This document shows, piece by piece, positions 13,427 through 41,684 of a stretch of 41,685 nt of DNA. Made by a program: the position numbers and the translations under genes. How positions within the stretch are numbered: position 1 is the first letter of the stretch; the number at the start of each line of letters is the position of its first letter. The stretch is from Betaproteobacteria bacterium (GTDB lineage: Bacteria; Pseudomonadota; Gammaproteobacteria; Burkholderiales; SG8-39), in contig JBQTJF010000261.1 of NCBI GenBank assembly GCA_052387375.1, positions 1-41,685 of the forward strand, read 5' to 3'. The notes beneath the pieces are model-generated. The model was not told the DNA's origin. It searched no databases and saw only the letters and a list, made by a program, of their open reading frames with translations.

Positions 13427-14673
13427 CGCGTGCTCTCTTGCGGGTACAGATAGCTCAGATTGGCCCAGGCCTTGGCGCGCTCGGCGAGCGCCTGGATCAG
13501 GCCCAGCTCGTTCTCGGTCACCATGCGCTCCGACTCGAGAACCGCTCCGAGCTCGCTCCTGCCACCACGGTACGCGGCAAGCGAAGCGGTGACGCGGTCG
13601 CGCGCCAGCGGCAGGAGCGTGCGCTCGAAGCGCTCGATGCGACGCTGCGCGGTATCGAAATCGGCGAGCCAGCCGCGAACCTCGGCCTCCCGCATCCGCC
13701 GGGCGTCCTCGCGCATGGCGCGCGTCTGCTCGAGCTCGGCGAGGCGCGAAGCGACGTCGCGGTCCTGGCGACGCTCCGCCCGCCAGGGCAAATCGAACGC
13801 CACCATGACCGTGAGCATGTTTTCGAAGTAGGGCCGGCGCTGCCCGTAGCCCACTTCCAGCATCCAGTCGGATTTCTTCATGCTGGTGGCAAGGTCCACC
13901 TCGGCACGGGCGAGCGCTTCGCGCCGATCGAAAGTGCGCAGCTCCGGGTGCTCGGCGAGCCGTGCGACAAGCTCGTGGCGAGGCTGCGCGAACGCAGTGG
14001 TATCGGGCGGATCGGCAAGCGGGCGCTTGGCCGCCTCGCCGAGCCAGCTTGCCAGCATGATGCGCGCCTTCTCGACGGCCCGCTCCTGCTCGAGCAGCTT
14101 GTCGTTCGCCTGCTCGAACGCCTGGCGCAGCATGAAAGCGTCGGCCGCGCCCTGCCTGCCGCGGGCAATCGCCGGCGAAAGAGAGTCCAGGTGCAGCCGG
14201 AACTGGCCCGCCAGCCGCTCGAGCGCGGCGCGCGAGCGCTCGGCGTAGTGCAGCTCCAGCCACGAAGTGGCGATGTCGCGCTGGAGGAGCGCCTCCTGCG
14301 CGGCCAGGTTCGCGCCTTCGACGCCGCGCGCACGCTCGGCGCGCAGGTTGCGCGCCTCGCGCTTCGCGCTGTTCGGGAATTCCTGGGTCCAGCCGATGGC
14401 GCGCGCGGTCATGAAGTCGCGGTCGTAGCGCAAGCGGTCCTCTCCCGTGACGGGCAGGTTCTCGATGCCCAGGCGCAGCTTCGGGTCCGGCAGCTCGCCG
14501 GCCCGGCCGACCTGCTCGCGCGCCGCGTCCACCATGTGGCGCTGGGCGGCGAGCCGCGGCGATTGCGCGAGCCCCGAGCGGACCGCCTCCTCAAGCGACA
14601 GCGGTTGTGCCCCGGCACCCAGCGCGAGCACCGCCAGGGAAGCGGCGGCGAACGTCTTCGCAATTACGTGCAT
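13423..14673 (-). CDS. TolC/CusC-type outer-membrane efflux protein
   Basis: Signal peptide, LPDPKLRLGIENLP, helical repeats; directly upstream of cusB. Confidence 0.88.
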   Translation of the reverse strand: MHVIAKTFAAASLAVLALGAGAQPLSLEEAVRSGLAQSPRLAAQRHMVDAAREQVGRAGELPDPKLRLGIENLPVTGEDRLRYDRDFMTARAIGWTQEFPNSAKREARNLRAERARGVEGANLAAQEALLQRDIATSWLELHYAERSRAALERLAGQFRLHLDSLSPAIARGRQGAADAFMLRQAFEQANDKLLEQERAVEKARIMLASWLGEAAKRPLADPPDTTAFAQPRHELVARLAEHPELRTFDRREALARAEVDLATSMKKSDWMLEVGYGQRRPYFENMLTVMVAFDLPWRAERRQDRDVASRLAELEQTRAMREDARRMREAEVRGWLADFDTAQRRIERFERTLLPLARDRVTASLAAYRGGRSELGAVLESERMVTENELGLIQALAERAKAWANLSYLYPQESTR

Positions 14674-14676
14674 GTC

Positions 14677-14758
14677 GATCTCCAAGCGGCGTTAAACGCC
14701 CGCGCGCAGCGCGCGGGCGGCAAGGCGATTTCAGCCGAGCGAGTCGGCCGTGGAGATC
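14677..14758 (-). promoter_or_regulatory. RBS-sequestering stem-loop between leader 1 and tolC
   Basis: GATCTCCA (14677-14684) pairs with TGGAGATC (14751-14758); inner GC-rich hairpin. Confidence 0.7.
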
Positions 14759-15140
14759 AGATCAGGAAGGAGTGCAGCAGGATGCGCGCCGGCGGGGCGC
14801 CCGGCGGCGGCGCCTGGAGGCCCGTGGGCGGCGAACCTCGGTCGTCACGACGCTCCAGCAGCAGCACCGGCAGGTCGGCGGGGCTGCGTACGAGAGCGAC
14901 AGCAAGGCCGGCGAGTTGCAGGTCCGAGGTGCAATGCGCGACGCAACGGTTGCCGTAAAGCGAGTCGAAGCCGGAGACCGATGCCCCACAGCAGCCATCC
15001 TCGCCCGCCGGCGCCATGGCGAGCGCGAGCGCGCCGCGCTCGACCGGGCAGTCGGCAAGCGAGAGGCTCGCCTGGGCGAAGCCCAGCAGCGCGATCAGCG
15101 CTATGGCGATCCGGCGGATGATTCGAGCGCGCATTCTCAT
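14757..15140 (-). CDS. Exported Cys/Pro-rich leader protein 1 (CutF-like)
   Basis: Signal peptide, CC and CVAHC, C-terminal PPPGAPPARILLHSFLI; TAGAAT -10-like box at 15153-15158. Confidence 0.75.
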   Translation of the reverse strand: MRMRARIIRRIAIALIALLGFAQASLSLADCPVERGALALAMAPAGEDGCCGASVSGFDSLYGNRCVAHCTSDLQLAGLAVALVRSPADLPVLLLERRDDRGSPPTGLQAPPPGAPPARILLHSFLI

Positions 15141-15175
15141 TGGCTGGGCAGCATTCTATAGGACTTATGACAGCG

Positions 15176-15913
15176 TCAGCCGATGCGCCCGAAGATCGGG
15201 AAGGTGCGCAGCATCCAGAAGCCGAAGGCGTTGAGCTGGCCGGTCAGCATGGCGATGCCCATCAGCACCACTACCGCACCGGCAATGTATTGCAGCCATG
15301 CCCCGGCGCGCCGCAGCCGGCGCATCGTGCCGAGCATCTCGCGCGTGAAGGCAGCCGTAACCAGAAACGGCACACCGAGTCCGGCGGCATAGACGGCGAG
15401 CAGAGCCACGCCCGTGGAGACCGAGGTCTGCACCGCCGTCACGGTGAGGATGGCGCCCAGCACCGGGCCGATGCACGGCGTCCAGCCGAAGCCGAAGGCG
15501 AGGCCGAGCACGTACGCGGCGAGCGGGTGGCCGCCGTGCAGCGCCGGGTGGAAGCGCAGCTCGCGCTGCGACCACGGCAGCAGGCGGTCGAAGCCGAGCA
15601 TCAGCAGGCCGAAGAGGATGACGATGGCGCCGCCGATGACGTTGGCTTCGGTGCGGTATTGCAGCAGCAGGCGGCCGAGCGCCGTGGCGCTCGCGCCCAG
15701 CGCGATGAAGACGGTCGAGAAGCCGAGCACGAAGAACGCGCTCATCGACAGCGTGGCGAGGCGCGTGCGCGCCGCGGGCGCGGCATCGACACCGGGCGCC
15801 CCGCCGGCGACATAGGAGACGTAGGCCGGCACGAGGGGCAGCACGCAGGGCGAAAGGAAAGAAACCATGCCCGCGAGGAACGCCGCCGTGAGGCCTACGG
15901 AGCTCGCCTCCAT
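15176..15913 (-). CDS. ccdA: Cytochrome c biogenesis protein CcdA
   Basis: SFLSPCVLPLVP and FGWTPCIGPVL. Confidence 0.92.
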   Translation of the reverse strand: MEASSVGLTAAFLAGMVSFLSPCVLPLVPAYVSYVAGGAPGVDAAPAARTRLATLSMSAFFVLGFSTVFIALGASATALGRLLLQYRTEANVIGGAIVILFGLLMLGFDRLLPWSQRELRFHPALHGGHPLAAYVLGLAFGFGWTPCIGPVLGAILTVTAVQTSVSTGVALLAVYAAGLGVPFLVTAAFTREMLGTMRRLRRAGAWLQYIAGAVVVLMGIAMLTGQLNAFGFWMLRTFPIFGRIG

Positions 15914-16500
15914 CAGCCGCTCCCGGGGGCGATGAGCCGCCGTATCGACTCGAGCGCCGGCGCGCTGTCCCACTCTGCCGGCCCGACATGGCGGGCGATC
16001 TCGCGCCCTTCACGGTCGAGGAGCAGCGTGCTCGGTACCCCTACCACGCGAAGCGCGGCGCTGGCCTGCATCGAGCGGTCGACGTAGATGCCGAGCGCGT
16101 CGACGCCGATCTCGCGGTAGAAACGCCGTACCGCTTCCGCGCCACCGGCGTCGATGGCCAGCGCCACAACTTCGAAGCCGGGCCCCCCGAGCTTCTGCTG
16201 CAGGCGGGAGAGCGCCGGCATCTCTTCGCGGCAGGGCGCGCACCATGTCCCCCACACGTTGAGCAACACGTACCGGCCGCGGAAATCGGCGAGCGAGCGC
16301 GGCCGCCCCGCGCCGTCCTCGAAGGCGAGGTCGCGCACCGCGACCGGCGTCGCGTGGACTCGCAACACGCCGGCGGGTTCAGGGGCCAGCGCTGGAGCGG
16401 GCGGCGAGGCAAGGCGCGAGTCGAAGATCCAGATACCCACAGCCACACCGCCAAGGAGAGCGAGGCCGAGGGCCAAGCGCGGATAGATGCCCACGTTCAC
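15913..16500 (-). CDS. TlpA/ResA-like thiol-disulfide oxidoreductase
   Basis: N-terminal membrane anchor, WCAPCREEMP, GVPST. Confidence 0.9.
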   Translation of the reverse strand: MNVGIYPRLALGLALLGGVAVGIWIFDSRLASPPAPALAPEPAGVLRVHATPVAVRDLAFEDGAGRPRSLADFRGRYVLLNVWGTWCAPCREEMPALSRLQQKLGGPGFEVVALAIDAGGAEAVRRFYREIGVDALGIYVDRSMQASAALRVVGVPSTLLLDREGREIARHVGPAEWDSAPALESIRRLIAPGSG

Positions 16501-16539
16501 TGCTCCTCCTTACACGAGATGCTTCGCCATGCGGCTAAT

Positions 16540-17205
16540 TTAAATGGGCTTGAGCAGGGTTTCGATGCGCGCGAGGCTGCGCGCCGAATCGGCGACGATG
16601 GCGGCGGTGCCGCCCGGCAGCGGCATCACGGCCGCTTTCAAGCCCTTCGCCGATGCGCTGGCGCGCGAGCGGCGCGGCTCTCCCGGAAAGAAGAGCAGCG
16701 TCGCCTTGCCGAGCGGCGTCGTGACGAGGAAATGATGCGCCGAGCCTTCGGCAAGCGGGTAGAAGCAGATATAGCGCACGTCGCCGATCTCGGGAGGTAG
16801 CGACACGCTCATCTGGCGTGCCACCCGGGCGATGATGCCCGCCTCGACGGGCTTTGCCTCCGCAATCGTGCGTGCCTCCTCGTATACGACGAAGTCGATG
16901 CCCGCGCGCGCCAACGGATCGTCGGGCGCCAGCATCGCGCTCGCTGCCAGTCCCGCGGCCAGCAGGACTGCCGCGGCGGCCGCGTACCAGCCTGCCGCAC
17001 GCCGGGAGCTCGCCCGGGCCGCCAGCTTTTTCGCCAGCTCGCGCGGAACGCGAACGCGAAGCGCCTTTTCGATGCGCCGCTCGAGCTCCAGAGCGTTCGC
17101 GAGAAAGTCTCGGCAGGGGGCGCATTGCGCGGCGTGGGCAGCGGTAGCTGCATCCAGCTTGCGGGGATTGCTCGCCGCGGCGCGACGAAATTCCAGGCAG
17201 TTCAT
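16540..17205 (-). CDS. DUF3379-like putative zinc-finger membrane protein
   Basis: MNCLEFRR...H...CxxC N-terminus and one TM helix. Confidence 0.6.
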
Positions 17206-17999
17206 GTTCCAGAGACCCGATGGCGAGGGCGATCCTTACTCCACCACAGCAGCGCCGCGCCGGCGGCGATCATGGGCAGCGAAAGCCACTGCCCCATGGT
17301 GAGGCCGAGCGCGAGCAAGCCCAGATGCGCATCGGGCTCGCGGGTAAACTCCACAGCGAAGCGGAATACGCCGTAGCCGACGAGGAACAGGCCCGACACC
17401 TGGCCGCGCGGGCGCGGCTTCGAGGAGAACCACCACAGCAGCGCAAAGAGTGCCAGGCCTTCCAGCGCGGCCTGATAGAGCTGCGAGGGATGGCGCGGCA
17501 GCTCGCCAGCGCCGCGGAACACCATGCCCCAAGGCAGCGCCGTCGGGCGGCCCCACAGCTCGCCGTTGATGAAGTTGGCGATGCGCCCCGCGGCGATGCC
17601 GAGCGGCACCAGCGGAGCAACAAAGTCGGCCAGCCGCAAAAAGCCGATGCCGCGGCGCCACGCGACGAACGCCATGGCAACGATGACGCCGAGCAGCCCG
17701 CCATGGAACGACATGCCCCCATGCCAGATGGCGAGGATCTCCAGCGGATGCGAAGCATAGTAGGCCGGCTTGTAGAAGAGCACGTAGCCGAGCCGCCCGC
17801 CGAGGATCACGCCCAGCACCGCGGCAAATACCAGGCCCTCGAAATGCTCGCGCGTCAGCGGAGCGAGGCCTCCAGCGATCCTTCTCCTTCCCAGCCACCA
17901 GGCCGCCGCAAAGCCGGCGAGATACATCAGGCCGTACCAGCGCACCGCGAGCGGGCCGATGGAGAACGCCACCGGATCGATGTCGGGCTGGAACAGCAT
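17202..17999 (-). CDS. lgt: Prolipoprotein diacylglyceryl transferase (in frame with the upstream Met-rich ORF)
   Basis: [48 protein letters not shown]. Confidence 0.93.
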
Positions 18000-18353
18000 G
18001 GCGTGTACCGCGCGCCGCGATCCGCGCGCGCCCGGCTTGGTGTCCTTTACCTGACCCGCATACTTCGCGAGGATCTCGCCCATCTTCTGCATCATCTCCG
18101 CCTGCATCTGGAGCTGCAGCTTTTCGTTTCCAGGCGGGAGCTGCGGCATCATCGCGCCACCGCTCATCATACGGTGGCATCCCTGCATCATGTGCATCAT
18201 GTCCCCGCCCATCATTCCACCGCCGCTCATCATGCCACCGCCGCCCATCATGCCCGCCGGCGGCTTCTCGTGTTGCTGGGCGAGCACCGTTCCGGAACCG
18301 GCAAAGAGCAGAGCGCTGGCACAAACAATCCCGAGCATCGGTTTTGCATCCAT
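18000..18353 (-). CDS. Met/Gly-rich exported domain with no stop before lgt
   Basis: Signal peptide, then [27 protein letters not shown]; GGAGG RBS. Confidence 0.65.
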
Positions 18354-18375
18354 CTGCGCCTCCTTCGAAGGTCGA

Positions 18376-19401
18376 CTAGAAATGGCCGATCGATGCGGCG
18401 ATGATGCTTCCGGCCATCATCGAAATCGCGATGGCGAGCAGCCGCAAGCCGAGCCGGCGGTTCCGAGCCTGCAAGTCGGCTCGGGCGGCGGCGGACGGCG
18501 CTGGCGCGCGCCCGCGGCGGCTGTCGAGCGCCGATTCGCGCATGCCCCATAAACGGATGACCAGCAGGACGGCGACCGCCAACACGAGGCCGCCGGGAAT
18601 CCACATCACCAGGCCACCGAGCTGCTCATCGTGCAAGGCGCCGAGTTGCGGCCAAAGCCTGCCGTTAGCGCCATACGCCGGATAGAGAACCGAGGACTTG
18701 AGGGCGAGGTAGGCGGCCAGGGGCGTGGTGGCCGCGATGGCGGCGATGACCATGGTGAGCCGGGCGCCGTAACCGGCCCCCGGCGGCACCGGTCGTGGGT
18801 CGAACACCTGCGAGAAAAACAGAAGCCCGGAAAAGAGCATGGTGAAATGCATGAAGTAGTGGGTTGCATCGCCGGCAAGGGCGAGCTCGTGGTAGCGCGG
18901 GACGTGCCAGAAGTAAATCGAGCCCACGAAGAGCAGCGTCGCTGCCGCCGGCCGCGCGGCGATATGGAACATCGCGCGCAGGCCGCCGCTCGAGACAACC
19001 GGCGCCAAGGCGCCTGAGCGCAGAGCCGGCGGCATTCCTGCAACCAGGGTGGCCTGGGGCGCGGCGAGCATGACGAGCATCGGCCCGATCGACTGCAGCA
19101 AGAGGTGCTGAAGCTGGTGCAGGGCAAAGGAGTGCTCGGCGGCGGTATCGAGCGGCGACTGCAGCGACGCGAGCAGGGCTGTCATGCCGGCGAAGAAGCT
19201 CGCGTGCCGCCACGCGGAAACCGGATGCGACGCATTGCGCCGGCGCAGGATGCCGGCCGCGTAACTCCAGCCCAGGAGCAGCGTGAGAGCGAGAATCTCA
19301 GGCGCAAACGGCCATGCGAGCCTATCCGTTTGCGCTTCGCCGCCGTGCGCGAACGCGGCAAGCGGAATCGCAAGCGACAGCGCGCCCGCAAGCGCTCTCA
19401 T
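18376..19401 (-). CDS. Cytochrome c oxidase assembly protein (Caa3_CtaG family)
   Basis: [32 protein letters not shown]. Confidence 0.85.
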
Positions 19402-19715
19402 CGCTCCGGCGAGCGCCATTGCTCGTTGGGCCGGGAGCGACCCATCATCCCGCCGCCCATCATCCCGCCGCCGCCCATCATGCCGCCGTCGCCCATCATG
19501 CCCCGGCCCTCCGAGCGATTCGCTTCCAGGCGCGCGACGGCACGCTCCAGCCGCTCGAGGCTGCGCTCGAGCTGCTCGACCCTGCGTTCGAGCCGCGCCA
19601 CGGCGGCGCTCTGCGCTCCGGGCTGCGGCGTGCGCGCCCGGTCCTCTTGCGCCATGGCGGTGCCGGCCAGGAATACCGCCATGAGGGAAGTCGTGCAGAT
19701 TTTCACCTTGCTCAT
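19398..19715 (-). CDS. Small exported coiled-coil protein with a Met/Gly-rich tail
   Basis: Signal peptide, heptad LERRVEQLERSLERLER, GMMG repeats; overlaps the start/stop codons of both neighbours. Confidence 0.7.
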   Translation of the reverse strand: MSKVKICTTSLMAVFLAGTAMAQEDRARTPQPGAQSAAVARLERRVEQLERSLERLERAVARLEANRSEGRGMMGDGGMMGGGGMMGGGMMGRSRPNEQWRSPER

Positions 19716-20356
19716 AAAGCCTCCTTTTCCGATGCGGCGAGCAGCCGCTCGAGGTCTTCCACGATGCGCTCGACGCTGCGGCCGTTCTGGCTGATGTAGA
19801 GGCGCGGCTCGCCGCGCGCGTCGAACACCAGGATGCCGGTGCTGTGGTCGACCATGTAATGCCCGCCATGGCCGGCGTGCGTCTTGTCGGCGCGGTAATG
19901 GATCTTGAACTCCTTTGCCAAGCGCTCGGTTTCCTCAGGCGTGCCGCGCAGGCCGAGAAAGCCGGGATGGAAAGCCGCAACGTAGCTGGAGAGGACCTTG
20001 GGCGTATCGCGTTCCGGATCGACCGTGGCGAACAGGCCCTGCACCCGCGCGCCGTCCTGACCGAGCCGCCTTACCGCCTCGGCCATCTCCGCCAGGGCGA
20101 GCGGGCAGGCGTCCGGGCAGCTCGTGTACCCGAAAAAGAGCATCACGACCTTGCCGCGAAAATCTGCAAGGCTGCGGCGCCTGCCGTGGTGATCGGTGAG
20201 CTCGAAACCGCGCCCCCAGTCCACCCCGGTGATGTCGGTGGCGTGGAACTTGCGCTCCGGCGCTTGCCTGCCGCATGCGACGAGGAGCGGCGGCGCACTC
20301 GCCGCTGCCGCGAGCGCTGCGAGAAAGCCGCGTCGTGTCAGACTTGCCCTGACCAC
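19712..20356 (-). CDS. SCO1/SenC copper chaperone (Tat lipoprotein)
   Basis: TRRGFL...LVAC, FGYTSCPDACP, VDPERDT, DHS. Confidence 0.92.
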   Translation of the reverse strand: MVRASLTRRGFLAALAAAASAPPLLVACGRQAPERKFHATDITGVDWGRGFELTDHHGRRRSLADFRGKVVMLFFGYTSCPDACPLALAEMAEAVRRLGQDGARVQGLFATVDPERDTPKVLSSYVAAFHPGFLGLRGTPEETERLAKEFKIHYRADKTHAGHGGHYMVDHSTGILVFDARGEPRLYISQNGRSVERIVEDLERLLAASEKEAL

Positions 20357-20832
20357 CGAAGATCCCAACGCCTTCTGGAGAGGTACAGCGCGACCGGCGG
20401 CAACAGCAACCATTGCAGCAGCGGCGTCCAGCCGATCTCGATCTCCGCGAGCTGGAGGGTCGGCATCGCCTTGGCGTAAGCCCAGCTCGCGAGGACCTTC
20501 GTGTTCATCCATTCGCTGAACACGGTGTAGGCAATGCCGAAGAACGCGGTCAGCGCGGCGAGGCGACGCCATCGCCAGCCCTCGAGCGTCCGTTCGCGGC
20601 CCGCAATGAGAGCGAGCGCGAGGGCGGCGGTACCGATCAGGACGTCCCCGAGCGTGCAGTGCACGATCGAGAACGCGATGTAGCCCGGCGACGCCTCGCT
20701 CCACAGCGTGTACAGCGGCACGTGCACCGCCTCCCAGCCGAGGTTCAACGCGGCGAGCCACGGCAGGTAGCGCAGCGCGAGCATGCGCCACGCGGCGCGA
20801 TCGCGGTACCAGAGCATCGCCTCAGCCGCCAT
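20338..20832 (-). CDS. Hypothetical membrane protein
   Basis: ~4 TM helices; WE..HVPLY, HCTLGD, PLLQW; packed into the operon. Confidence 0.7.
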   Translation of the reverse strand: MAAEAMLWYRDRAAWRMLALRYLPWLAALNLGWEAVHVPLYTLWSEASPGYIAFSIVHCTLGDVLIGTAALALALIAGRERTLEGWRWRRLAALTAFFGIAYTVFSEWMNTKVLASWAYAKAMPTLQLAEIEIGWTPLLQWLLLPPVALYLSRRRWDLRWSGQV

Positions 20833-21700: not shown

Positions 21701-21720
21701 CTTCTTCTCCAGGTAATGGA

Positions 21721-23804: not shown

Positions 23805-24248
23805 TTATGGGTCCCTGGCGTTGCGCTCGATTTCGGCGCGCGCGGCGAGCACCTCGGCGGACGTCCAGTGGCTCTTGATGTAAGCGAGCACCGCCCAGAT
23901 GTCGTCGTCCGAGAGCTTGCCGCCGAACGCCGGCATGTCGCTCTCGTAGCCCTTGGGCGCATAGGGCGGCACCAGGCCGTTCCTGGTAATGGCGAACAGC
24001 ACGTGATCGGGGTGGTGCCAGGTATGACCGCTCTCGTCGTGCGGCGGCGCCGGCAGGCGGCCGTTGGCGAGACGCTGGCGCCAATCGGGCTGGCCCTCGA
24101 GCTTCAGGCCGTGGCACGCGGCGCACTCCTGAACGTAGGTCTTTGCGCCGCGCGCGACCAACGCCGCATTGCCGGCGTCCGCGCGCGGTTGGTCCTGTTC
24201 GCAGGCGGAAACGATCAGCGCAGCAAGGAGCATGGCAGCCGCTCTCAC
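23805..24248 (-). CDS. Lipoprotein cytochrome c
   Basis: VSAC lipobox, [23 protein letters not shown]. Confidence 0.88.
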
Positions 24249-25642
24249 GCCACCCGGATCACCGCCATCATCCCCGAATGCTGATGCTCGAGGATATGGC
24301 AGTGAATCATCCAGTGGCCGGGGTTGTCGGCGACGAAGGCGATCTCGGCCTTCGTTTGCGCCGGCAGCAGCACGGTGTCGAGCCACTCGCGGCGCGCGGC
24401 CGGGCGGCCCTCGCGCCTGAGCACCCGGAACGCGTGGCCGTGCAGGTGGATCGGGTGGTCCCAGCGCGTATCGTTGACCAGATCGAAGACGTAGGAGCGG
24501 CCGAGCGCGAGCTTCAGGATCGGCTCGTGGCCGTGGCCGTGCTCGGGCATCGGCTCGCCATTCACCGTCCACGCCATGCCGCGCATCATGCCCATGCCCG
24601 GCATGTCGCCCATCATGCCGCCGCCGAAGTCGATGCGGTGTCGCTCGGCGCGCGCGAGGTCGGGCTCGCCGAGCGGGTTGGGCGCGAGCTTCGGCAGCGC
24701 GCTCCCGGCGCGCCCGTGGCGCAGCCTCTCTTTCTCGTAGCGCAGATCGAGCAGGCGGTAGGCGCGCCGGCTGTAGAAGTCGTCCACTACCGGGTAGGCG
24801 CGGCCGGGCTCGCCCGTCGCGTCGAGGAGGACGTCCGCGCGCATCGCCGGGCCGAGCACGACCCGCCCGCCTTCCGGGCGGTGCGGCTCGACCGGATGCC
24901 CGTCGAGCGCGATGACTACGGGGTCGTGGCCGCGGAAATCCAGGCCGAAGATGCGGGCGTTCGCCGCGTTGACGAGGCGCAGGCGAATGCGCTCGCCCGC
25001 GCGCAGCGCGAAGGACTCGCGGATCGCGCCGTTCACCGTGACGGTGTTGCCGATGCGGCCGGCGTGGCTCGCGTCCATGAAATTGCCGAAATCGCCCACC
25101 ACTCGCGCGTTGCGGTCGAGGCGCCAGTCGCCGAGCACCCACACGAGGTCGCGGTCCACCGCCGGCGGGTCCGGCTCCTCGATGATCAGCGCGCCGTAGA
25201 CGCCGCGACCGACCTGATTGGAGCTGTCGAGGTGCGGGTGATACCAGTAAGTACCGGCGTCGGGCAGAGTGAACTCGTACAGGAAGCGCCCGCCACCGGC
25301 CTTGATCGGCGGCTGCGTGAGACCGGGCACGCCGTCCATGGCATTCGGCAACCGGATGCCATGCCAATGCACGGTGGTGTCCTTCGGCAGCAGGTTCTCC
25401 AGCTCGACGCGCAGCCGCTCGCCCTGCTTGAAGCGCAGTTCTGGCCCGGGCACGCTGCCCTCGTAGGTCCACACCGAGGTCTGCGGATAGCCGTCTCCGA
25501 CCAGGGAAGCGAGCGCCTCCCGCTGGCGGATCAAGCGCGGCGCGGCTTGCGCACGAACGGCAGGCAACAGGGCGAGTCCACCCGCCGCCGCGGCGGTACG
25601 CAGAAAATCTCTGCGGCTGAAACTTCGAGCTCTGAGCGTCAT
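24245..25642 (-). CDS. Tat-exported multicopper oxidase, paralog A
   Basis: [36 protein letters not shown]. Confidence 0.95.
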
Positions 25643-25645
25643 CGA

Positions 25646-25737
25646 CTTCCTCTCGGTTGCCGCAGGGGCCTGCGGCGAATGGCGAGCGCAAAGCGCTCGC
25701 CGCGGTCAGCGGGCGCAGTACCGGCTAGAGGAGGAAG
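25646..25737 (-). promoter_or_regulatory. RBS-sequestering stem-loop between leader 2 and MCO A
   Basis: CTTCCTC (25646-25652) pairs with GAGGAAG (25731-25737); inner hairpins at 25659-25676 and 25681-25701. Confidence 0.7.
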
Positions 25738-26075
25738 CGGTGGAGGCGGAGGTAAAGCGGTGGACCGACTTGCGGTGCGGCCGCGAGCGGCGCTGTTGCA
25801 TGCGGAGACGAAGGCGGCTCCGTCGCCTGGCGGCGCTTGTCGGCAACGCCGCCGAAAAGCGGCGTCTGCGCTTGCTCAAGCGCGGAAGGAAAACCGGGTT
25901 GGCAAACCTCCTGCACGGCGCAGGCGGCAGCGGGTCCGTCGCAGGTGGGCGCAGGAGCGCAGCAATCGGAGACAGCCATTGCGCTGTGGCCTGCGAAGGC
26001 AAGCGCCGGCGCCGCCGGCGCGAGTCCGACAAGCAGCGCGAGCGCGAGAAGGACGACCTTCACCCCTTTGTACAT
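25725..26075 (-). CDS. Exported Cys/Pro-rich leader protein 2 (CutF-like)
   Basis: AAGGA RBS, signal peptide, five Cys, C-terminal GPPLYLRLHRFLL; TACAAT box at 26125-26130. Confidence 0.72.
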   Translation of the reverse strand: MYKGVKVVLLALALLVGLAPAAPALAFAGHSAMAVSDCCAPAPTCDGPAAACAVQEVCQPGFPSALEQAQTPLFGGVADKRRQATEPPSSPHATAPLAAAPQVGPPLYLRLHRFLL

Positions 26076-26143
26076 TTTTCCTTGGATGCTTCGTGTCCCG
26101 GCAAGTTCCTTGCCGGTCCTCGACATTGTAGCGCGACCTCGTC

Positions 26144-32706: not shown

Positions 32707-32961
32707 GTGCCCACCCAGAGACCCGACTTCTTCTTCTGGACGAGCAGCGCCGAGCTCGGGCAGGCGGTGCTCGTCGCGCGCGAGGCCGCCGGCCTGACGC
32801 AGATCGAGCTCGCCGCCCAGGCCGGCGTCGGCCGCAAGTTCCTCTGGCAGCTCGAGCGCGGCAAGGGCACGCTGCGCATGGACAAGGTGATCCGCGTGCT
32901 CGACACGCTCGGCCTCATGCCGCTCATCGTGCCCAAGGAGCTGCTCGGCGCGCTGCGCTAG
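32707..32961 (+). CDS. HipB/Y4mF-like XRE HTH regulator (orphan)
   Basis: ELGQAV..AR...GLTQIELAAQAGVGRKFLWQLERGKGTLRMDKVIRVLDTLGL. Confidence 0.85.
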   Translation: MPTQRPDFFFWTSSAELGQAVLVAREAAGLTQIELAAQAGVGRKFLWQLERGKGTLRMDKVIRVLDTLGLMPLIVPKELLGALR

Positions 32962-33028: not shown

Positions 33029-33742
33029 TCATGCGCGCGCCGCTTTCGCCACGGCGAACGTTTCCGCGGTGCCCGGCGCGCGCAGCAGGATCGTGCCGTC
33101 CGCCGCGCCCGTCAGATAGGGCGCGTCGGCCATCGCCCGCCTGTTCGCGTCCCTGCCCACGAAAGCGAAGCGGAACGCGGGCCGGAAGTGCAACCGGCGG
33201 AAGGAGGCGAGCGACGCGTAGTTGCTCCTGACCACCAGGGTTACCAGCCCCTGGAATCGCGGCGTTGCGGCGAAGCTCTCCACGACGCGGGGGATCTGGC
33301 AGCGGTGCAGGTGCTGGCCGCGCCACTCCGGCAGCGTGAACGCCTTGAAGTGGTAAACCCATCTTTCGGGAAAGCGGAACACGAAGTCCGCATCGATGTG
33401 CGTCGCGAGACGCGAATTGAAGCTGTAGCTGACCAGCTTCGCCCCGGCGAACACGCCGATGCAGCAGTCGCCGCGCGCTTCTGCCTCGTCGGCGAAGCGC
33501 GCGCCGAGCTCGTAGGCGGGATCCGCGGCGCAGGCGCGGAGCTCCTCCGCTCCGAGCTGGCGGCACGAGAGGCCGCTCGGCATCGGCGCGCGCCGCGGCG
33601 CTGCGCTCGCCGGCAGCACGAATCCTTCGTAAGGCACGTAGCCCGAGACGCGTTGTGCCGCCCGCCAGGCGAGGTACTGCGCCGCCGCGCCGGCGCCGAA
33701 GCGCGCCGCCTGCCCGCCGACCTCGCGCAGAAATCCCAGCAT
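33029..33742 (-). CDS. Hypothetical protein, possibly GNAT-like
   Basis: KAFTLPEWRGQHL and NYASLASFRRL resemble GNAT motifs A and B; coupled to the upstream stop. Confidence 0.55.
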   Translation of the reverse strand: MLGFLREVGGQAARFGAGAAAQYLAWRAAQRVSGYVPYEGFVLPASAAPRRAPMPSGLSCRQLGAEELRACAADPAYELGARFADEAEARGDCCIGVFAGAKLVSYSFNSRLATHIDADFVFRFPERWVYHFKAFTLPEWRGQHLHRCQIPRVVESFAATPRFQGLVTLVVRSNYASLASFRRLHFRPAFRFAFVGRDANRRAMADAPYLTGAADGTILLRAPGTAETFAVAKAARA

Positions 33743-34194
33743 CAGTTCGCGCGCTCCATCCTGATCACGGTGAACTTGCCGACGACGACGTCGGCCGTGA
33801 ATCGCACCTTGTCGCCCGGCTGGCGTCGCTCGAGCAACGCGCGATCGACCACCTGGAAGCCCATCGTCATCGGTCCCATGCCGAGATTGCCGAGCGACCC
33901 GTGGCTGATCGTCACCTGCCCGGCGCTGCGGTCCACCGCGACGACCACGCCGTCGGTTAGCGCGCCCGGGTCTCCGCCATGGGCCGCGTGTTCGCCCGAG
34001 CGCTGTTCGGCCGCTGGCGGCGGCTTCGACATCCAGGCGAAGACGACGACGGCGAGGGCGAGCACCACGTCGAGCGGCACGGCGCCGCCCCGCAGCTTCT
34101 CCTCTACCATGCGCCGCACCGCCGCCTCGTCGGCAGATGCGCCGAACGAAGCTGCGGCGAACATCGCCGCCAGGATGACGCGAACTGATGTCAT
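33742..34194 (-). CDS. Chimeric DsbC-remnant / CusF-like copper-binding protein
   Basis: ADEAAVRRMVEEKLRG and GAVPL match the two ends of dsbC; then a TM helix and HGSLGNLGMGPMTMGF. Confidence 0.75.
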   Translation of the reverse strand: MTSVRVILAAMFAAASFGASADEAAVRRMVEEKLRGGAVPLDVVLALAVVVFAWMSKPPPAAEQRSGEHAAHGGDPGALTDGVVVAVDRSAGQVTISHGSLGNLGMGPMTMGFQVVDRALLERRQPGDKVRFTADVVVGKFTVIRMERAN

Positions 34195-34263
34195 GCCTAC
34201 CTCCGCTTCCTGAACGCCGCTCGACTTCCGCGGCATGCTTTCCGTCAAAGCTTCGGCTGGCGG

Positions 34264-34584
34264 CTATTCGCGGAGCTTGCGAAAGAGGATCGACAGAGAA
34301 ACCCGGGCGTGCGCCGACGCGCGATGAACGCCGAGCGCGGCGGGAGAGCTCGCCCGGCGCAAGGCCTGGCGAACCGCGGGGCCGAAGCTTGGCGGGCCGG
34401 CGTACGCGTTCGCAGCCATCGCACCAGACTCGCAGCTGCGCTCGAGGCAGACAGCATGGTGCGGCGCCGGCGCGGGACTGACCGCCGAGACGCCGGAGCC
34501 GGGCGCGGCCGCCGCAGATGCAGCGGCCGCTCCCGCGACGAGGAGCGCGGTCGCGATCAAGACAGAGGCGGCCAGCGAGCGCAT
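34264..34584 (-). CDS. Exported leader protein 3 (CutF-like, divergent)
   Basis: Signal peptide, HHAVCLERSC, C-terminal SLSILFRKLRE; its last codons are complementary to the next RBS. Confidence 0.6.
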   Translation of the reverse strand: MRSLAASVLIATALLVAGAAAASAAAAPGSGVSAVSPAPAPHHAVCLERSCESGAMAANAYAGPPSFGPAVRQALRRASSPAALGVHRASAHARVSLSILFRKLRE

Positions 34585-34619
34585 CAGCGCAGTATCGGAC
34601 ACCGCGATGGCGGCACGGT

Positions 34620-37598: not shown

Positions 37599-38159
37599 CT
37601 ACTGCACCGTGATCTTGGCGATCATGCCCGCCTCCATGTGGCCCGGGATCAGGCAGGCGTAGTGGAGTTCCCCGGCGCGCGTGAACTGCCAGACGACCTC
37701 GCCTTGCTTGCCCGGCGCGACGTGTGCCATGTAGGCCTCGTCGTGCTCCATGCCGGGAAACTTGCGCATCAGCTCGGCGTGCTGTTTCAGCTGCTCCATG
37801 CTGCCGATCACCATCTCGTGCATGACTTTGCCGTCGTTGCGCACCAGGAAGCGGACCGTTTCGCCCTTCTTCACCACGATGTCGGCGGGCATGGCGTGCG
37901 GAGTATTGCCCGCGCGCACGTCGCTGGTGCGTTCGGCTGCGACTACCGCGAACCGCATGGTGTCCTGCATCCCGACGCGGATGGTGCGATCGATCCTCTT
38001 CGGGTTTCCAGCCTTCCCGAAGGGCATTTCCTCCGTCTTCGAGTAGTCGATAGCCTTAGGTTCCCCGTGCCCGCTGTCGCCATGCCCGAAGGCAGCCGGG
38101 ACGAGCGACAGCAGCGAGACGGCCACCGCGGCGGCCAGGAAGGGTCTTGCGTGGTGCAT
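37599..38159 (-). CDS. Cupredoxin (CopI-like)
   Basis: HEMVIG, M/H-rich loop, CLIPGHMEAGM. Confidence 0.9.
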   Translation of the reverse strand: MHHARPFLAAAVAVSLLSLVPAAFGHGDSGHGEPKAIDYSKTEEMPFGKAGNPKRIDRTIRVGMQDTMRFAVVAAERTSDVRAGNTPHAMPADIVVKKGETVRFLVRNDGKVMHEMVIGSMEQLKQHAELMRKFPGMEHDEAYMAHVAPGKQGEVVWQFTRAGELHYACLIPGHMEAGMIAKITVQ

Positions 38160-38208
38160 TGCACTTGCTCCTTTCGAGAAGAAAACAACAAAGAAACATT
38201 CGAGCCGA

Positions 38209-39579
38209 TCAATGGCCGACATGGCCCGCAGGCTTTTTCGCGCGCAGCGCCGGGGCCTTTTCGCCCGCCGCCGCAGGTTGCTGGCGCGCCGGCGGCGGCG
38301 CCTCGCCCGTCCATTCGTACGCGACGGTGCCGCGCGGGTGTCGATACCAGCCCGGGTCCTTGTAGTCGTTGCGCGCGAGGCCCGCGCGCACCTTGACGAC
38401 CGTGAACATGCCGCCCATCTCCAGCGCGCCGAAGGGGCCCTCGCCGCTCATCATCGGCAGCGTGTTGTCGGGAAGCGGCATCTCGTGCGGCATCGAGCCG
38501 CCGGTATGCCCCATGACCATGTAGTCGGGCACGAGGCGGTTGATCTTCTCCACCAGGCCGCGGTGATCCACCCCGATCATGGTCGGCACGTCGTGGCCCA
38601 TGGCGTTCATCACGTGGTGGGACTTGTGGCAATGGAAGGCCCAGTCGCCCGGGTTGTCGGCGACGAACTCGATGGCGCGGATCGCGCCGACCGGCACGTC
38701 GACCGTAGTTTCGGGCCAGCGCGCGCTCTTCGGCACCCAGCCGCCGTCGGTCAGCGCGACCGCGAAATCGTGGCCGTGGATGTGGATCGGATGGGCGGTC
38801 ATGGTCAGGTTGGCGATGCGAATGCGCACCCGGTCGCCCTTGCGCACCGGCAGGTGGTCGATGCCCGGGAAGACGCGGCTGTTCCACGTCCAGAGGTTGA
38901 ACTCCAGCATTTCAGCCACCTTTGGCGTGTGCGCGCCGGGCGCGATCTCGTAGGCCGCCATGACGAAGGCGAAGTCGCGGTCGACCGGGGCGAACTTCGC
39001 GTCGCGCGGATGCACGACCAGCGAGCCCATCATGCCCATCGCCATCTGCACCATCTCGTCGGCGTGCGGGTGGTACATGAAGGTGCCCGACTTCGGCATC
39101 TGGAACTCGTAGACGAAGGTCTTGCCCGGCGTGATGTGCGGCTGGGTGAGGCCGCCGACGCCGTCCATGCCGTTCGGCACGAGGATGCCGTGCCAGTGGA
39201 TCGTAGTGTGCTCGGGCAGGCGGTTGGTGACGAAGATGCGCACGCGGTCGCCCTCCACGCACTCGATCGTCGGCCCCGGCGACTGGCCGTTGTAGCCCCA
39301 CAGGTTCGCGGTCATGCCGGGCGCGATCTCGCGGCGCACCGGCTCGGCGACGAGGTGGAACTCCTTCCATCCGTTGTTCATGCGCCAGGGCAGCGACCAG
39401 CCGTTCAGCGTGACTACGGGGTTGTACGGCCGCCCGGTAGCGGGAAAAAGGGGCGGGGCGGCCTCGGCCGTCTCGCGCATCGGGGCTTCCGGAAGCGACG
39501 CGGCACCGACTCTGGACACCAGAGCCGCGCCGAAAAATCCTGCCGCCGAGCCCGCCAGGAACTTCCTTCGAGAATTCAT
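38209..39579 (-). CDS. Tat-exported two-domain-type multicopper oxidase
   Basis: SRRKFL, HWHG, MYHPH, HPIHIHGH, HCHKSHHVMNAMGH. Confidence 0.93.
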   Translation of the reverse strand: MNSRRKFLAGSAAGFFGAALVSRVGAASLPEAPMRETAEAAPPLFPATGRPYNPVVTLNGWSLPWRMNNGWKEFHLVAEPVRREIAPGMTANLWGYNGQSPGPTIECVEGDRVRIFVTNRLPEHTTIHWHGILVPNGMDGVGGLTQPHITPGKTFVYEFQMPKSGTFMYHPHADEMVQMAMGMMGSLVVHPRDAKFAPVDRDFAFVMAAYEIAPGAHTPKVAEMLEFNLWTWNSRVFPGIDHLPVRKGDRVRIRIANLTMTAHPIHIHGHDFAVALTDGGWVPKSARWPETTVDVPVGAIRAIEFVADNPGDWAFHCHKSHHVMNAMGHDVPTMIGVDHRGLVEKINRLVPDYMVMGHTGGSMPHEMPLPDNTLPMMSGEGPFGALEMGGMFTVVKVRAGLARNDYKDPGWYRHPRGTVAYEWTGEAPPPARQQPAAAGEKAPALRAKKPAGHVGH

Positions 39580-39580
39580 T

Positions 39581-40978
39581 TCAATGTCCTCCGCCGCCGG
39601 GGGAAGCGGGCGCTTCCGACGCGGCTCTCGTGAGTTGCATCGCCCCGGGCGAGCGCCCGGTGAGCGCCATCTGCAGGTCCGATTCGGCCAGCCAGTAGTC
39701 GCGCAGCGATTCGATGGACGCGTTCACCGCCGCAACCTGCTCGCGCGAGTCGGCGAGCAGCTCGAACACGCTCGCCAGCATGCCGTTGTAGCGCAGCAGC
39801 ATCTCGTCGGATATGCGCCTGCGCAGCGGCACGATCTCGTCGCGGTAGTGCCGCGCCAGGTCGAAAGCGGTGCGGTAGGCGCCGTAGGCCTCGCGCACCT
39901 CGGATCGCGCCTGGACGGCGGCCTGCGCGGCACGGTTCACCGCCTGCATATACTGGCGCTCCGCCCGTGCGTTGCGCGCGGTGCCGAAGTCGAAGATCGG
40001 GATGCCGATCTCCAACTCCCAGCCGCGCTGGCGCGGCCGGTCGGTTTCGCTGTTGCTCAGCGCCCCGAGCTCGAGCAAGCTCACGTAGCGCGTCACCCTG
40101 GTGAGGCCGAGCGAGCGCGCGAGCGCCTCCGCATCGCGCTTCGCCCCTTGCACATCCAGGCGCTGCGCCATCGCCTGCGCTTCCAGGTCGCGCGCCTCGC
40201 GCGGCTCGGCGGGCAGCTCGAGCAGCCGCTCGGGCAGCCGGAACGCCAGATCCTCGCCCCACAACCCCAGCAGCCGGGTGAGGCGCTCGCGCGCCGCGCG
40301 CTCGCCATGCTGCGCGCGCGCGAGCTGCGCGGTGGCCTCGGCGTAGAACGCCTGCTCGCGCGCCTGGTCGAGCTTGGAGAAGTTGCCGACCTCCGCCATA
40401 CGGCGCGCAAGGTCAGCGCTCGCCTCCGCCGCCTCTTTCACCTGCGCGGCGTACTTCGCGCCTTCCTGCGCCGCCACGGCGGCAAACCAGGCCTTGCGCG
40501 CATCGAGCGCCACGCCGAGCGCCTCGGAGGCGGTGCGGCTCCGCACCGCCTCCAGGCGCGCCTCTTCGGCGCGCACCGACAGCGGGATGCTGAGCAGGCC
40601 GAGCACGTCGAAGAAGACGCTGCGCTCGTACTCCGTTTCGTCGCCGCGACGCAGCCGCGCGAAGGAGAAGGTGGGCCCGCGCCAGCGGCTCGCCTGCACG
40701 AGCTCGGCCTCCGCGATGCCGACCTCGGCGTAGCTCGCCTGCAGGCCGGGGTTGTTCAGCAGCGCGGTCTCGACCGCGCTCTGCGGGCTAAGCGGCTGTG
40801 CGAGCAGCTCCTTCACCCGCGCACGCACCGAATCGGCTTCGTTCTCGGAGCGCACCCACTTGGGCTGCGCGCCGATGCGCTCCTGCACCGCCTGCTCGAC
40901 CGGGGAGAACCCGGCATCCGGCGTGAGCGACTTGCAGCCGGCGAGAATAATGACCGCGCCCGCGGCAAAGCGCCTCAT
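39581..40978 (-). CDS. TolC-family outer-membrane lipoprotein
   Basis: LAGC lipobox, ALLNNPGLQA, IPIFDFG, RYNGMLASVFELL. Confidence 0.9.
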   Translation of the reverse strand: MRRFAAGAVIILAGCKSLTPDAGFSPVEQAVQERIGAQPKWVRSENEADSVRARVKELLAQPLSPQSAVETALLNNPGLQASYAEVGIAEAELVQASRWRGPTFSFARLRRGDETEYERSVFFDVLGLLSIPLSVRAEEARLEAVRSRTASEALGVALDARKAWFAAVAAQEGAKYAAQVKEAAEASADLARRMAEVGNFSKLDQAREQAFYAEATAQLARAQHGERAARERLTRLLGLWGEDLAFRLPERLLELPAEPREARDLEAQAMAQRLDVQGAKRDAEALARSLGLTRVTRYVSLLELGALSNSETDRPRQRGWELEIGIPIFDFGTARNARAERQYMQAVNRAAQAAVQARSEVREAYGAYRTAFDLARHYRDEIVPLRRRISDEMLLRYNGMLASVFELLADSREQVAAVNASIESLRDYWLAESDLQMALTGRSPGAMQLTRAASEAPASPGGGGH

Positions 40979-41253
40979 TTGTGGCCCCCATGCGCGCCCG
41001 GCTGGGCCTCGCGCGGTTCGCGCGCGCCGCCCGGCTCGCGCGGGCTTTCCGTCTTGCCGCCGGCGACTCGCTCATTCGCCGCCCGCCACGAAGCGAGCTC
41101 GGGCTCTGCGTAGGGCCGGTAGGCCTCGAAAGCCGAGCGATATTCGACGCGCGGCGCGTCGGCCTTCGGATCCCTCGGATCGGGCCGCTTTTCCTGCGCG
41201 GCCGCGGCGCCCGCGGCAGAAACCGCGAGAAGAAAACAAATGCTTTTTCGCAT
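40975..41253 (-). CDS. Small exported protein of TolC-MCO copper operons
   Basis: Signal peptide, YRSAFEAYRPY...WRAANERV. Confidence 0.75.
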   Translation of the reverse strand: MRKSICFLLAVSAAGAAAAQEKRPDPRDPKADAPRVEYRSAFEAYRPYAEPELASWRAANERVAGGKTESPREPGGAREPREAQPGAHGGHK

Positions 41254-41327
41254 GACTCACTCGACTGCGACGTGCGCGCGAAAGCGCGCGAAACGGCGCG
41301 CACGCGGCGCGCCGGCTCAGTCAGAGG

Positions 41328-41684
41328 TCAGAGAGCGAGAGGCGGGGGATCGAGGTGCTCGGGAACGTGGCCGCTGGCGAAATACGCGGCCATCGGGACG
41401 CGCTCGGTGCCGGGCGCGGTCGCGATCGCCGGCTGCGCCGCGGGCAGAGCCGATGCGCTCGCGCAATGCTCGGCGCAGGCGTTGCAGTCGGCGTTCGAGC
41501 CCGAATCGGGAGCCTGTCCGTGCTCGTGCGCGGCATGATCGTGGTCGGCGTCGGCCGGCGCGGCAGCCGCGGGCGCGAAAGCGCAGAAACCGATCGTCAC
41601 CGCCGCGAGAGCGCGCAGCGGCAGCAGCGCAAGCAGCGTCAGCACGACGAGAAATGTTGCGGCTCTTCTCACAGCGGCGCGCAT
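41328..41684 (-). CDS. Exported leader protein 4 (DUF2946/CopL-like)
   Basis: Signal peptide, His-rich segment, CNACAEHC, C-terminal HLDPPPLAL. Confidence 0.75.
   Translation of the reverse strand: MRAAVRRAATFLVVLTLLALLPLRALAAVTIGFCAFAPAAAAPADADHDHAAHEHGQAPDSGSNADCNACAEHCASASALPAAQPAIATAPGTERVPMAAYFASGHVPEHLDPPPLAL

Follow-up and report, generated by a model that had tools for sequence, protein, structure and literature searches.

Leader peptides that sense copper are a recent discovery, and only CutF of R. capsulatus and CruR (Bp2923) of Bordetella pertussis are known to have been studied at the bench (PMC9973294, PMC9426467). Here, we compare with them four small genes on contig JBQTJF010000261.1 (C261) of a betaproteobacterial genome. 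The window is this entire 41,685-bp contig (~69% G+C), and the source genome is fragmented (389 contigs, 3.8 Mb, 91.5% complete). An earlier note on this DNA had read the four genes as leader open reading frames (ORFs) that end complementary to the ribosome-binding region of the next gene. We find that masking of the next Shine-Dalgarno (SD) sequence by the leader's 3' end is conserved and co-varies in types 1 and 4 (types being numbered after leaders 1 to 4) and recurs in type 2, which gives solid comparative RNA support for three of the four switches. We lean towards the view that all four genes are cis-acting CutF-like leader ORFs gating translation of the copper-handling genes behind them. 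The observation made in the earlier note was thus largely right, and its interpretation is plausible.

In the work of Ozturk et al. (2021/2023), CutF-like proteins are defined by five rules: a length below 150 aa, an N-terminal signal peptide, a Cys/His motif, a PP among the last 15 residues and a neighbor on the same strand. They number 5,334 in 29 clusters, mostly with spacers below 100 nt. Their neighbor is most often OEP, followed by TonB-like and PCuAC proteins, and CusA, CusB, CusF and multicopper oxidases (MCOs) also occur; CusD and SilD of Cupriavidus metallidurans belong to the published network (PMC9973294). The general concept, CutF-like proteins widespread upstream of OEP, CusA/B/F and MCO genes, is already in print (PMC9973294), and therefore we describe no new principle, only a variant of CutF/CruR-like leaders.

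The four ORFs lie on the minus strand within one 27-kb array, compared with about two CutF-like genes per genome reported (PMC9973294), at the positions given by the earlier note (Table 1). Third-position GC in the proposed frames is 0.73-0.84 and each has homologues; on both grounds the four small genes are real. The features ascribed to them are also present. All N-termini, judged by eye, are signal-like, with a basic N-region, a hydrophobic core and an Ala-rich end. The Cys/His motifs, kept in the homologues, are CxxHC (leader 1), CC..C..C..CQP (leader 2), HHxC..C (leader 3) and CxxCxEHC with a His run (leader 4), and the C-termini are as quoted. Pro-rich tails were found in leaders 1, 2 and 4, and leader 3 has none. 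Leaders 1, 2 and 4 follow the CutF-like rules, the signal peptide being a putative one judged by eye, and leader 3 departs from them at its PP position, which is occupied by VS.

The likeness to CutF (R. capsulatus cutFOG) extends from the small size, signal-like N-terminus and central Cys motif to the short spacer and the SD-shielding stem. CutF ends in PEPEGPPPRL and leader 4 in HLDPPPLAL; CutF has 45 residues after C73 (PMC8456105), type-4 leaders mostly 44-45 after their Cys motif. Leader 2 precedes a Tat-signal MCO, as cutF precedes cutO, and the downstream genes here (OEP/CusCBA, Tat-signal MCO, CusF) are neighbors reported for CutF-like proteins (PMC9973294). Unlike CutF, leaders 1-3 carry a ten-residue hydrophobic/basic extension after the PP, which leader 3 has lost, and the type-1 anti-SD lies just after the stop codon. 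The RNA is a three-helix junction, not a single stem-loop. CruR (DUF2946/PF11162) is likewise a copper-sensing leader ORF heading a copper operon, with a fixed distance between Cys motif and arrest motif that is conserved and functionally important (PMC9426467). It differs in controlling an uptake receptor through Rho-dependent termination in a long unstructured spacer, with copper relieving the arrest. Similar small genes are known from other copper systems. CopL of Xanthomonas/Stenotrophomonas is Cys/His-rich and needed in cis for copper induction of the downstream oxidase (cited in PMC9973294). CusD/SilD and CzcI/CzcI2 of C. metallidurans stand directly upstream of a copper/silver RND (resistance-nodulation-division) outer-membrane gene, and the CMxHC and HxDH motifs reported for CusD resemble leaders 1 and 4, a likeness that rests on the published description (PMC10304878).

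Pairing of leader ends with the following SD sequence

The leaders are followed on the same strand by spacers of 69 to 83 nt, close to the 70-85 nt given before. At every junction (J1 to J4, after leaders 1 to 4) the minimum-energy fold brings the leader's last codons or stop region into pairing with the next gene's SD, with two GC-rich hairpins in between. The strength of the fold differs when compared to dinucleotide shuffles: J1 (z -3.28; 1/200 shuffles as good; 10 of the 12 SD-window nt paired to the leader end) and J2 (z -3.89; 0/200) stand out, J4 is marginal (z -2.03; 8/200), and J3 is at chance.

The earlier note had asked for covariation of the stems in homologues. For type 4, a metagenome scan gave 53 loci, of which 36 distinct junctions and the window's own formed a set of 37. 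The 17 loci left out had identical junctions (L054, L059, L062, L064, L068, L079, L082, L091, L100), were cut by a contig end (L050, L069, L081, L090, L096, L099), had no start by the rule used (L072) or had a 122-nt spacer (L092). The type-1 set of 24 consists of 14 junctions from named metagenome-assembled genomes, 9 from other genomes and that of the window; left out were L004 and L029 (contig end), L011 (159-nt spacer), L028 (108-nt spacer, uncertain start), L014, L021 and L025 (no start by the rule used) and L013 (partial match).

In the type-1 MAFFT alignment (A6) the helix was out of register; we therefore used an alignment-free test in which each anti-SD was paired with its own or a swapped SD. 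Own duplexes were more stable both in type 1 (-18.08 vs. -14.49 kcal/mol) and in type 4 (-20.06 vs. -18.32 kcal/mol), with 0/5000 permutations as good in either case, a significance that is overstated because related sequences are counted as independent. In type 1, changes in the nucleotides that immediately follow the stop are matched by changes in the SD region (TGATCTCC/GGAGATCA, TGATCCTCCG/CGGAGGAT, TAGCCTCCGC/GCGGAGGC, ATTCTCCGTG/CACGGAGAAT, GTCTTCTTGTA/TACAAGGAGAC). Several distinct sequence solutions of this kind argue for repeated compensation in the anti-SD/SD helix. Unconstrained folds agreed: at least 5 of 12 SD-window nt were paired to the leader end in 22/24 type-1 and 34/37 type-4 junctions, with means of 8.3 and 9.4 nt, respectively, vs. 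3.5 and 3.8 when the leader end was shuffled.

For type 4, RNAalifold on the MAFFT alignment returned the two inner hairpins only, and the outer helix was added by hand. This hand-drawn three-helix structure, counted on an alignment not fitted to it, was 87.2% paired vs. 25-57% when partners were slid by 1-3 columns. Thirteen of its 27 pairs changed on both sides (7/500 shuffles reach that), and the covariation score was 0.234 vs. 0.181 +/- 0.007 (0/500 shuffles). The anti-SD/SD helix alone was 91% paired, with 5/8 pairs changed on both sides. In type 2, four of the five junctions had z <= -3.4, the relatives scoring -5.60 (L040), -4.54 (L103), -3.45 (L106) and -1.46 (L038), and shared a three-way shape with spacers of 82-87 nt. 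Type 3 stayed behind, with one of its four junctions above chance (see below).

A covariance model of the type-4 junctions (R1) scored J4 at 85 bits, with the window sequence in the training set, and matched only J4 and one further copy. The other three window junctions remained below 19 bits, and the junction elements therefore share architecture, not sequence. The further copy (L005:555-668, minus strand, 66 bits, genome G162) lies ~0.8 kb from, and divergent to, a type-1-like leader (L005:1501-1860, plus strand); both leader types therefore co-occur elsewhere too. Another type-4 leader (P0168) and a type-1 leader (L024) are on contigs of equal length (600,506 bp), probably one and the same.

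The median position of the anti-SD, counted from the first base of the stop codon, is +6 (type 1), -5 (type 2), -16 (type 3) and +1 nt (type 4). Rfam gave no match at gathering score in the whole window, any spacer included. No intrinsic-terminator-like site was found in the four spacers, and counts in the terminator/promoter scan were at chance level. SD masking by the leader's 3' end is thus documented by covariation and by own-versus-swapped partners across dozens of loci; comparative RNA evidence of this kind was not found in the literature consulted on CutF/CruR-type leaders.

Leader families, conserved tails and start regions

The four sequences had been called unrelated, which does not hold for all of them. 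The type-1 and type-4 profiles align over 110 columns (hhalign, probability 94%, E 1.4e-7), joining the signal region, the first Cys, the N-x-C-x-x-H-C motif and the proline stretch, with type 1 running ~12 residues further. This makes leaders 1 and 4 distant homologues. A weak alignment with the wider leader-1 superfamily was obtained for the tails of leaders 2 (E 5.5e-4, tail only) and 3 (E 3.9e-3), and the profile comparisons of A1 with A2 and of A3 with A4 were not significant. None of the leaders, nor any of ten distant type-1 relatives, matched a family in Pfam or NCBIfam. For leaders 1 and 2, the nearest named homologues are those of a Woeseiaceae metagenome-assembled genome. In a plasmid collection, tblastn found no match for leaders 1 and 4 (for leader 4 even at E 10), and a megablast search of plasmids with 13000-27000 matched only short stretches of conserved genes.

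The leader-1 family is large, with 307 matches in all, of which 120 are listed and aligned full-length; the tail and spacing counts refer to those 120. RILLHSFLI ends 101 of them, and C31, C66, H69, C70, P117, R119, I120, L121 and I127 are invariant among 22 aligned sequences. For leader 4 we found 60 matches, with E-H-C invariant, CxxC near-invariant, the HLDPPPLAL tail in 38/60 and a PP[LV]xx ending in 57/60. Translation of leader 4 may start at the GTG at 41672 instead of the ATG: the match to the family profile sets in at this codon, and the end of the contig cuts the -10-like element upstream. For leader 2 we found 2 close matches, and a five-sequence profile detects it in 7/317 genomes of its family, its own included. 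A search of 1.84 billion representatives returned one match for leader 3, which shares 44% identity overall and 10 of the last 11 residues. Three more relatives, inspected because they were the ones among 10 non-self matches that reach the tail without stop codons, end in ILFRNFR[EK].

The C-terminal 9-12 residues are the best-conserved part of the leaders, among them those of the fast-evolving types 2 and 3. PP lies at -12/-11 from the C-terminus in leaders 1 and 2 (followed by LYLRLHRFLL in the latter), and exactly ten residues follow the PP in both and in all ten distant type-1 proteins aligned, whose tails include DPPKTIRCCSFLI, PPQTILFCCFLN, DPPLSILFRNFRN and PPPRILFRSLLI. The last ten residues of leader 3, LSILFRKLRE, share 7/10 with LSILFRNFRN of a type-1-like protein. 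The suggestion of a separate class of 'ILxxxFL'-type endings therefore holds up, as a predicted class with a hydrophobic/basic 'PP-X10-stop' tail in leaders 1-3, without the PP in leader 3. In leader 4 the PPP is at -6 to -4.

The distance between the Cys motif and the C-terminus is also kept, varying by only about one residue: 57 aa from C..HC in 107 of the 120 listed type-1 proteins (range 55-58) and 45 aa from CxxCxEHC in 48/58 type-4 proteins (range 44-49). At codon level, the type-4 residues at -5 and -4 are P in 37/37 sequences; every one of the four Pro codons occurs there, and these positions are not part of the helix. In type-1 tails, the Arg codons are CGC or AGA, and the Ser codons TCC, TCT, TCG or AGC. 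Judged by these codons, the tails are under selection at the peptide level and do not merely translate a pyrimidine-rich anti-SD, because the residues persist through synonymous codon change.

Arrest peptides with an effect at or near the stop codon, such as TnaC and SecM, have a conserved C-terminal peptide beside a regulatory RNA element. RAPP/RGPP leader ORFs (cf. ApdA/ApdP) have been reported upstream of metal genes (PMC12992588). Leaders 1-3 resemble all of these in the conserved C-terminus next to an RNA element; the tail motifs differ. A RAPP motif three residues from the end is absent from the four tails (DPPPLAL, GAPPARILLHSFLI, GPPLYLRLHRFLL, VSLSILFRKLRE), and for RILLHSFLI, YLRLHRFLL and SILFRKLRE no matching motif was found in the literature. 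Our literature search also found no description of a PP-X10 tail or of covariation in such spacers, with the reservation that the supplements of PMC9973294 may bear on this. We thereby define a large family without Pfam/NCBIfam annotation (at least 307 clusters in a word-index search), with a near-invariant C-terminal tail and a rule of ten residues after PP. The tail is a concrete, testable candidate for a new arrest motif.

The claim that the leaders head blocks of genes is supported by -10-like elements adjoining their starts despite upstream gaps of only 35-68 nt. Such elements lie beside the starts of leaders 1 and 3; that of leader 4 is cut off by the end of the contig. Because the leader-1 element is close to the ATG and no SD is visible, its transcript is probably leaderless or nearly so. 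Leader 2 differs in having its -10-like element 49 nt upstream, together with an SD. Among homologues, including loci L017-L030 and L048-L094, such elements recur: TAnnAT (TAGAAT, TACAAT, TAAAAT) stands beside the start in 11/18 type-1 loci (0.022 expected per window), and an extended -10 TGnTAnnnT in at least 19/32 distinct type-4 loci (0.008 expected per window). These elements point to a separate transcript for every leader, one that is leaderless or almost so. Leaderless mRNA has been reported for czcI2 of C. metallidurans (PMC7563307). Three type-1 loci (L015, L023, L026) share a motif resembling TTGAGGCAKATCAA ~45-60 nt upstream of the leader start, which might serve as a -35 region or as the operator of a regulator whose gene lies elsewhere.

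Proposed mechanism and alternative explanations

If the four genes are leaders that gate translation, we propose the following course, for which copper dependence, export coupling and ribosome arrest are inferred by analogy with CutF. Each leader would be transcribed from its own promoter, marked by a -10-like element that in leaders 1, 3 and 4 precedes the start by 6-12 nt; the transcripts of these three would be leaderless or nearly so. In the computed folds, the leader's 3' end (last codons, stop and first nucleotides beyond) forms a long-range helix with the next SD, closing over the two GC-rich hairpins. The nascent leader would be exported cotranslationally, and copper would bind the Cys/His motif as it emerges from the translocon while the tail still sits in the ribosome tunnel. 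Copper binding would prolong the stay of the ribosome at the last codons or stop, and the parked ribosome would cover the anti-SD strand. In each of the four types this strand is no more than ~20 nt from the stop, and by its geometry it should be within reach of a ribosome with its P site on the last few codons. With the SD exposed in this way, the genes for efflux, oxidase or chaperone functions would be translated. In the absence of copper, rapid termination on the leader would let the stem re-form. Leader 4 has the canonical PPP tail; stalling on PPP would place the ribosome over the 5' strand of the helix, in the way proposed for CutF. The 'PP-X10-stop' tail of leaders 1-3 would probably act at or near termination, and in type 1 R-I-L-L-H-S-F-L-I would occupy the upper tunnel during arrest.

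The last point leads to a more far-reaching proposal, which we offer tentatively and rate as doubtful on present evidence. The tail PP-x-R-I-L-L-H-S-F-L-I, with its variants YLRLHRFLL and SILFR[KN][FL]RE, might be a new class of arrest peptide that acts at the last codons or termination and not through its prolines. Together with a promoter that abuts the start codon and yields a leaderless transcript, an anti-SD positioned in the terminating ribosome's mRNA channel and a Cys/His sensor at a fixed distance of 57 residues upstream, it might form a copper switch without need of a protein regulator, parallel copies of which would control the whole island post-transcriptionally. If the tail stalls ribosomes, the known repertoire of arrest sequences would become wider, and it would be explained how copper islands move between hosts without their regulators.

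Several observations weigh against gating by leaders, some in general and some in favor of a particular alternative taken up below. Apart from the overstated significance of the permutations, the duplex swap test was not significant for type 2 (23/120 permutations as good, n = 5). Because the type-1 PP lies ten codons before the stop, too far to uncover the anti-SD, any type-1 arrest would be at or near termination; a proline stall there is too distant to free the SD, and another, putative motif would be needed. The DUF2946 profile suggested by the earlier note includes none of the leaders: neither they nor the ten distant type-1 proteins gave a match at E <= 1, and a six-frame search of the genome yielded nothing above cut-off and nothing on the contig. 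For CopL (NF033807) and CzcI (NF045614), only leader 4 gave hits, at E 0.32 and 0.34 (11.6 and 11.5 bits; cut-offs 40 and 100), and leaders 1-3 gave none.

For leader 3 taken by itself, there is a considerable chance, somewhat below even, that the stem is a fortuitous match in GC-rich DNA and that cusF is not gated. The fold in the window is no better than shuffles (z +0.24; 101/200 as good), two of the three relatives are at chance as well (+0.16 and -0.88), and the tail has no PP. In the opposite direction point the pairing of the SD with tail codons in the minimum-energy folds of all four type-3 junctions, the third relative (z -3.80), and a tail that is nearly invariant in proteins otherwise ~44% identical.

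Unlikely, but the strongest of the alternatives that concern all four genes, is that they encode working periplasmic copper-binding proteins of the CusD/CopL/CzcI kind, with the stem providing constitutive translational coupling and no regulated stalling. The signal-like N-termini of all four fit this, as does the conservation of leader 1 over its full length (mean column identity 57%) with invariant Cys/His. An Atlas search also places the nearest clusters of a homologue under the automatic name 'Copper resistance protein'. CusD of C. metallidurans has been read in this way in print, as a Tat-exported, copper-sequestering lipoprotein and not as a leader (PMC10304878). Its expression pattern is, however, consistent with a leader as well: cusD is already expressed in the absence of metal and, alone among the cusDCBAF genes, is not copper-induced, and no two-component system lies near cus (PMC10304878, PMC7563307). 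What speaks for gating leaders instead is that conservation in types 2 and 3 peaks in the tail, that a fixed Cys-to-C-terminus spacing and exactly ten residues after PP are hard to explain for a folded chaperone, and that CutF and CruR, the two tested relatives of the layout, are cis-acting and can hardly be detected as proteins (PMC9973294, PMC9426467).

We consider it improbable that the tails are no arrest peptides at all and serve as a C-terminal degradation or sorting signal of an exported protein, or arise as a by-product of the pyrimidine-rich anti-SD. Non-polar ends such as FLI, FLL and LAL would suit a degradation or sorting signal. The tail codons for Leu, Phe, Ser and Pro are C/U-rich, and in types 2 and 3 the tail codons themselves contain the anti-SD, so part of the tail conservation could serve the RNA. 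Yet the residues persist where all three bases of a codon have changed (Arg CGC/AGA; Ser TCC/AGC), the type-4 PPP is invariant outside the helix with free third positions, and leader 3 ends in the polar LRE. Least probable of all is a CruR-like course in which stalling controls Rho-dependent or other transcription termination in the spacer and not SD access: CruR is the other characterized copper-sensing leader (PMC9426467) and the downstream cus genes of C. metallidurans change at the mRNA level (PMC7563307), yet the spacers here are short and highly structured, compared to an unstructured region of 162 nt in CruR (PMC9426467, PMC9973294), the co-varying pairing involves the SD itself, and the spacers lack intrinsic-terminator-like sites.

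Layout and regulators of the copper island

From 41684 to ~8800 nearly all genes are on the minus strand and copper-related by Pfam. In the order of transcription, the first block comprises leader 4, a 92-aa secreted-looking ORF, OEP, an MCO, a cupredoxin, a YkuD-type transpeptidase and a BNR protein. The second holds leader 3, a CusF-like gene and a gene of no assigned family, and is followed by two plus-strand genes. After a third block (CopA-type ATPase, MCO, Rieske protein), the fourth is made up of leader 2, a Tat-signal MCO, cytochrome c, DsbD_N, DsbC, BNR, SCO1, CtaG-like, Lgt, DUF3379, thioredoxin and DsbD_TM, and the fifth of leader 1, CusC, CusB(-CusF) and CusA. The locus is thereby a natural test bed, with four switches of three tail types before efflux, oxidase and chaperone modules on a contig without copper regulator.

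Table 1. Positions of the leaders, junctions, start-region elements and following genes in the window (spacers are counted from the leader stop to the next start)
Feature	Coordinates	Strand	Details
Leader 1	14757..15140	-	127 aa; signal-like N-terminus; C31, C50-C51, C66-x-x-H-C70; tail APPPGAPPARILLHSFLI-stop
Junction 1 spacer	14674..14756	-	83 nt; two GC-rich hairpins between anti-SD and SD; anti-SD GATCTCCA (14751-14758) overlapping the TGA stop; partner SD region TGGAGATC (14677-14684); cusC-like ATG 14673-14671
Genes behind leader 1	8802..14673	-	cusC-like OEP 13423-14673; CusB with fused CusF domain 11939-~13420; CusA 8802-12086 (Pfam)
-10-like element, leader 1	15153..15158	-	TAGAAT; 12 nt before ATG; no SD visible
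Leader 2	25725..26075	-	116 aa; signal-like N-terminus; C39, C40, C45, C52, C58-Q-P; tail GPPLYLRLHRFLL-stop
Junction 2 spacer	25643..25724	-	82 nt; two hairpins between paired strands; anti-SD CTTCCTC (25731-25737, F-L codons of tail) with SD GAGGAAG (25646-25652); next ATG 25642-25640 (Tat-signal MCO)
Genes behind leader 2	23805..25642	-	MCO 24245-25642 (TAT_signal and Cu-oxidase domains); cytochrome c 23805-24248
-10-like element, leader 2	26125..26130		TACAAT; 49 nt upstream
Leader 3	34264..34584	-	106 aa; signal-like N-terminus; H43-H44-x-C46, C51; tail VSLSILFRKLRE-stop without PP
Junction 3 spacer	34195..34263	-	69 nt; possible pairing of CTCCGC (34270-34275) or CCTCTTTCGC with SD GCGGAGG (34200-34206); cusF-like ATG 34194-34192
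CusF-like gene behind leader 3	33742..34194	-	CusF_Ec, E 8e-21
-10-like element, leader 3	34591..34596		GATACT; 6 nt before ATG
Leader 4	41328..41684	-	118 aa from ATG 41684, or 114 aa from GTG 41672; C34, DHDH..H.H run, C67-x-x-C70-x-E-H-C74; tail HLDPPPLAL-stop
Junction 4 spacer	41254..41327	-	74 nt; two hairpins between paired strands; anti-SD CTCGCTC (41333-41339) and stop region with GAGTGAG (41256-41262); next ATG 41253-41251 (92-aa ORF)
Genes behind leader 4	37599..41253	-	92-aa ORF 40975-41253; OEP 39581-40978; MCO 38209-39579; cupredoxin 37599-38222

The gene after leader 4 had been taken for the outer-membrane protein gene itself; it is the 92-aa ORF, which belongs to no Pfam family and whose stop overlaps the OEP start (ATGA). 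In metagenome loci, most type-4 leaders are likewise succeeded by a similar small ORF (~80-96 aa, N-terminus resembling MHKSICF…AAAQEKRPDP).

As stated before, no CueR-, CsoR- or CopRS-type gene lies in the window. In a six-frame hidden Markov model search of the whole genome, 0/5 MerR_1, 0/84 Response_reg and 0/15 Sigma70_r2 matches fell on the contig, and CsoR had no match anywhere in the genome. A regulator encoded on another contig may still take part. Two helix-turn-helix (HTH) proteins were the only ones found on the contig. One, an ArsR-type HTH fused to a rhodanese domain, is encoded at 6473-7159 (minus strand), just outside the copper island. The other, and the only DNA-binding protein found between 8.8 and 41.7 kb, is an 84-aa XRE-type HTH protein (HTH_31/HTH_3, with a faint antitoxin-like match) on the opposite strand (32707-32961, plus).

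A fifth leader upstream of copA was not seen in the stretch inspected (30645-30927). A 65-aa ORF at 30641-30838 (minus strand), which has a C-terminal hydrophobic segment and no Pfam family, ends 3 nt before the GTG of the CopA-type ATPase and may not be real. The contig carries three MCO genes, all on the minus strand: the two in Table 1 and one at 26910-28277; only that at 24245-25642 is directly behind a leader. At 16540-18353 (minus strand), a DUF3379 protein and a prolipoprotein diacylglyceryl transferase (Lgt) are encoded amid thiol-disulfide and copper-chaperone genes, and the longest ORF of Lgt has an N-terminal extension of ~126 aa.

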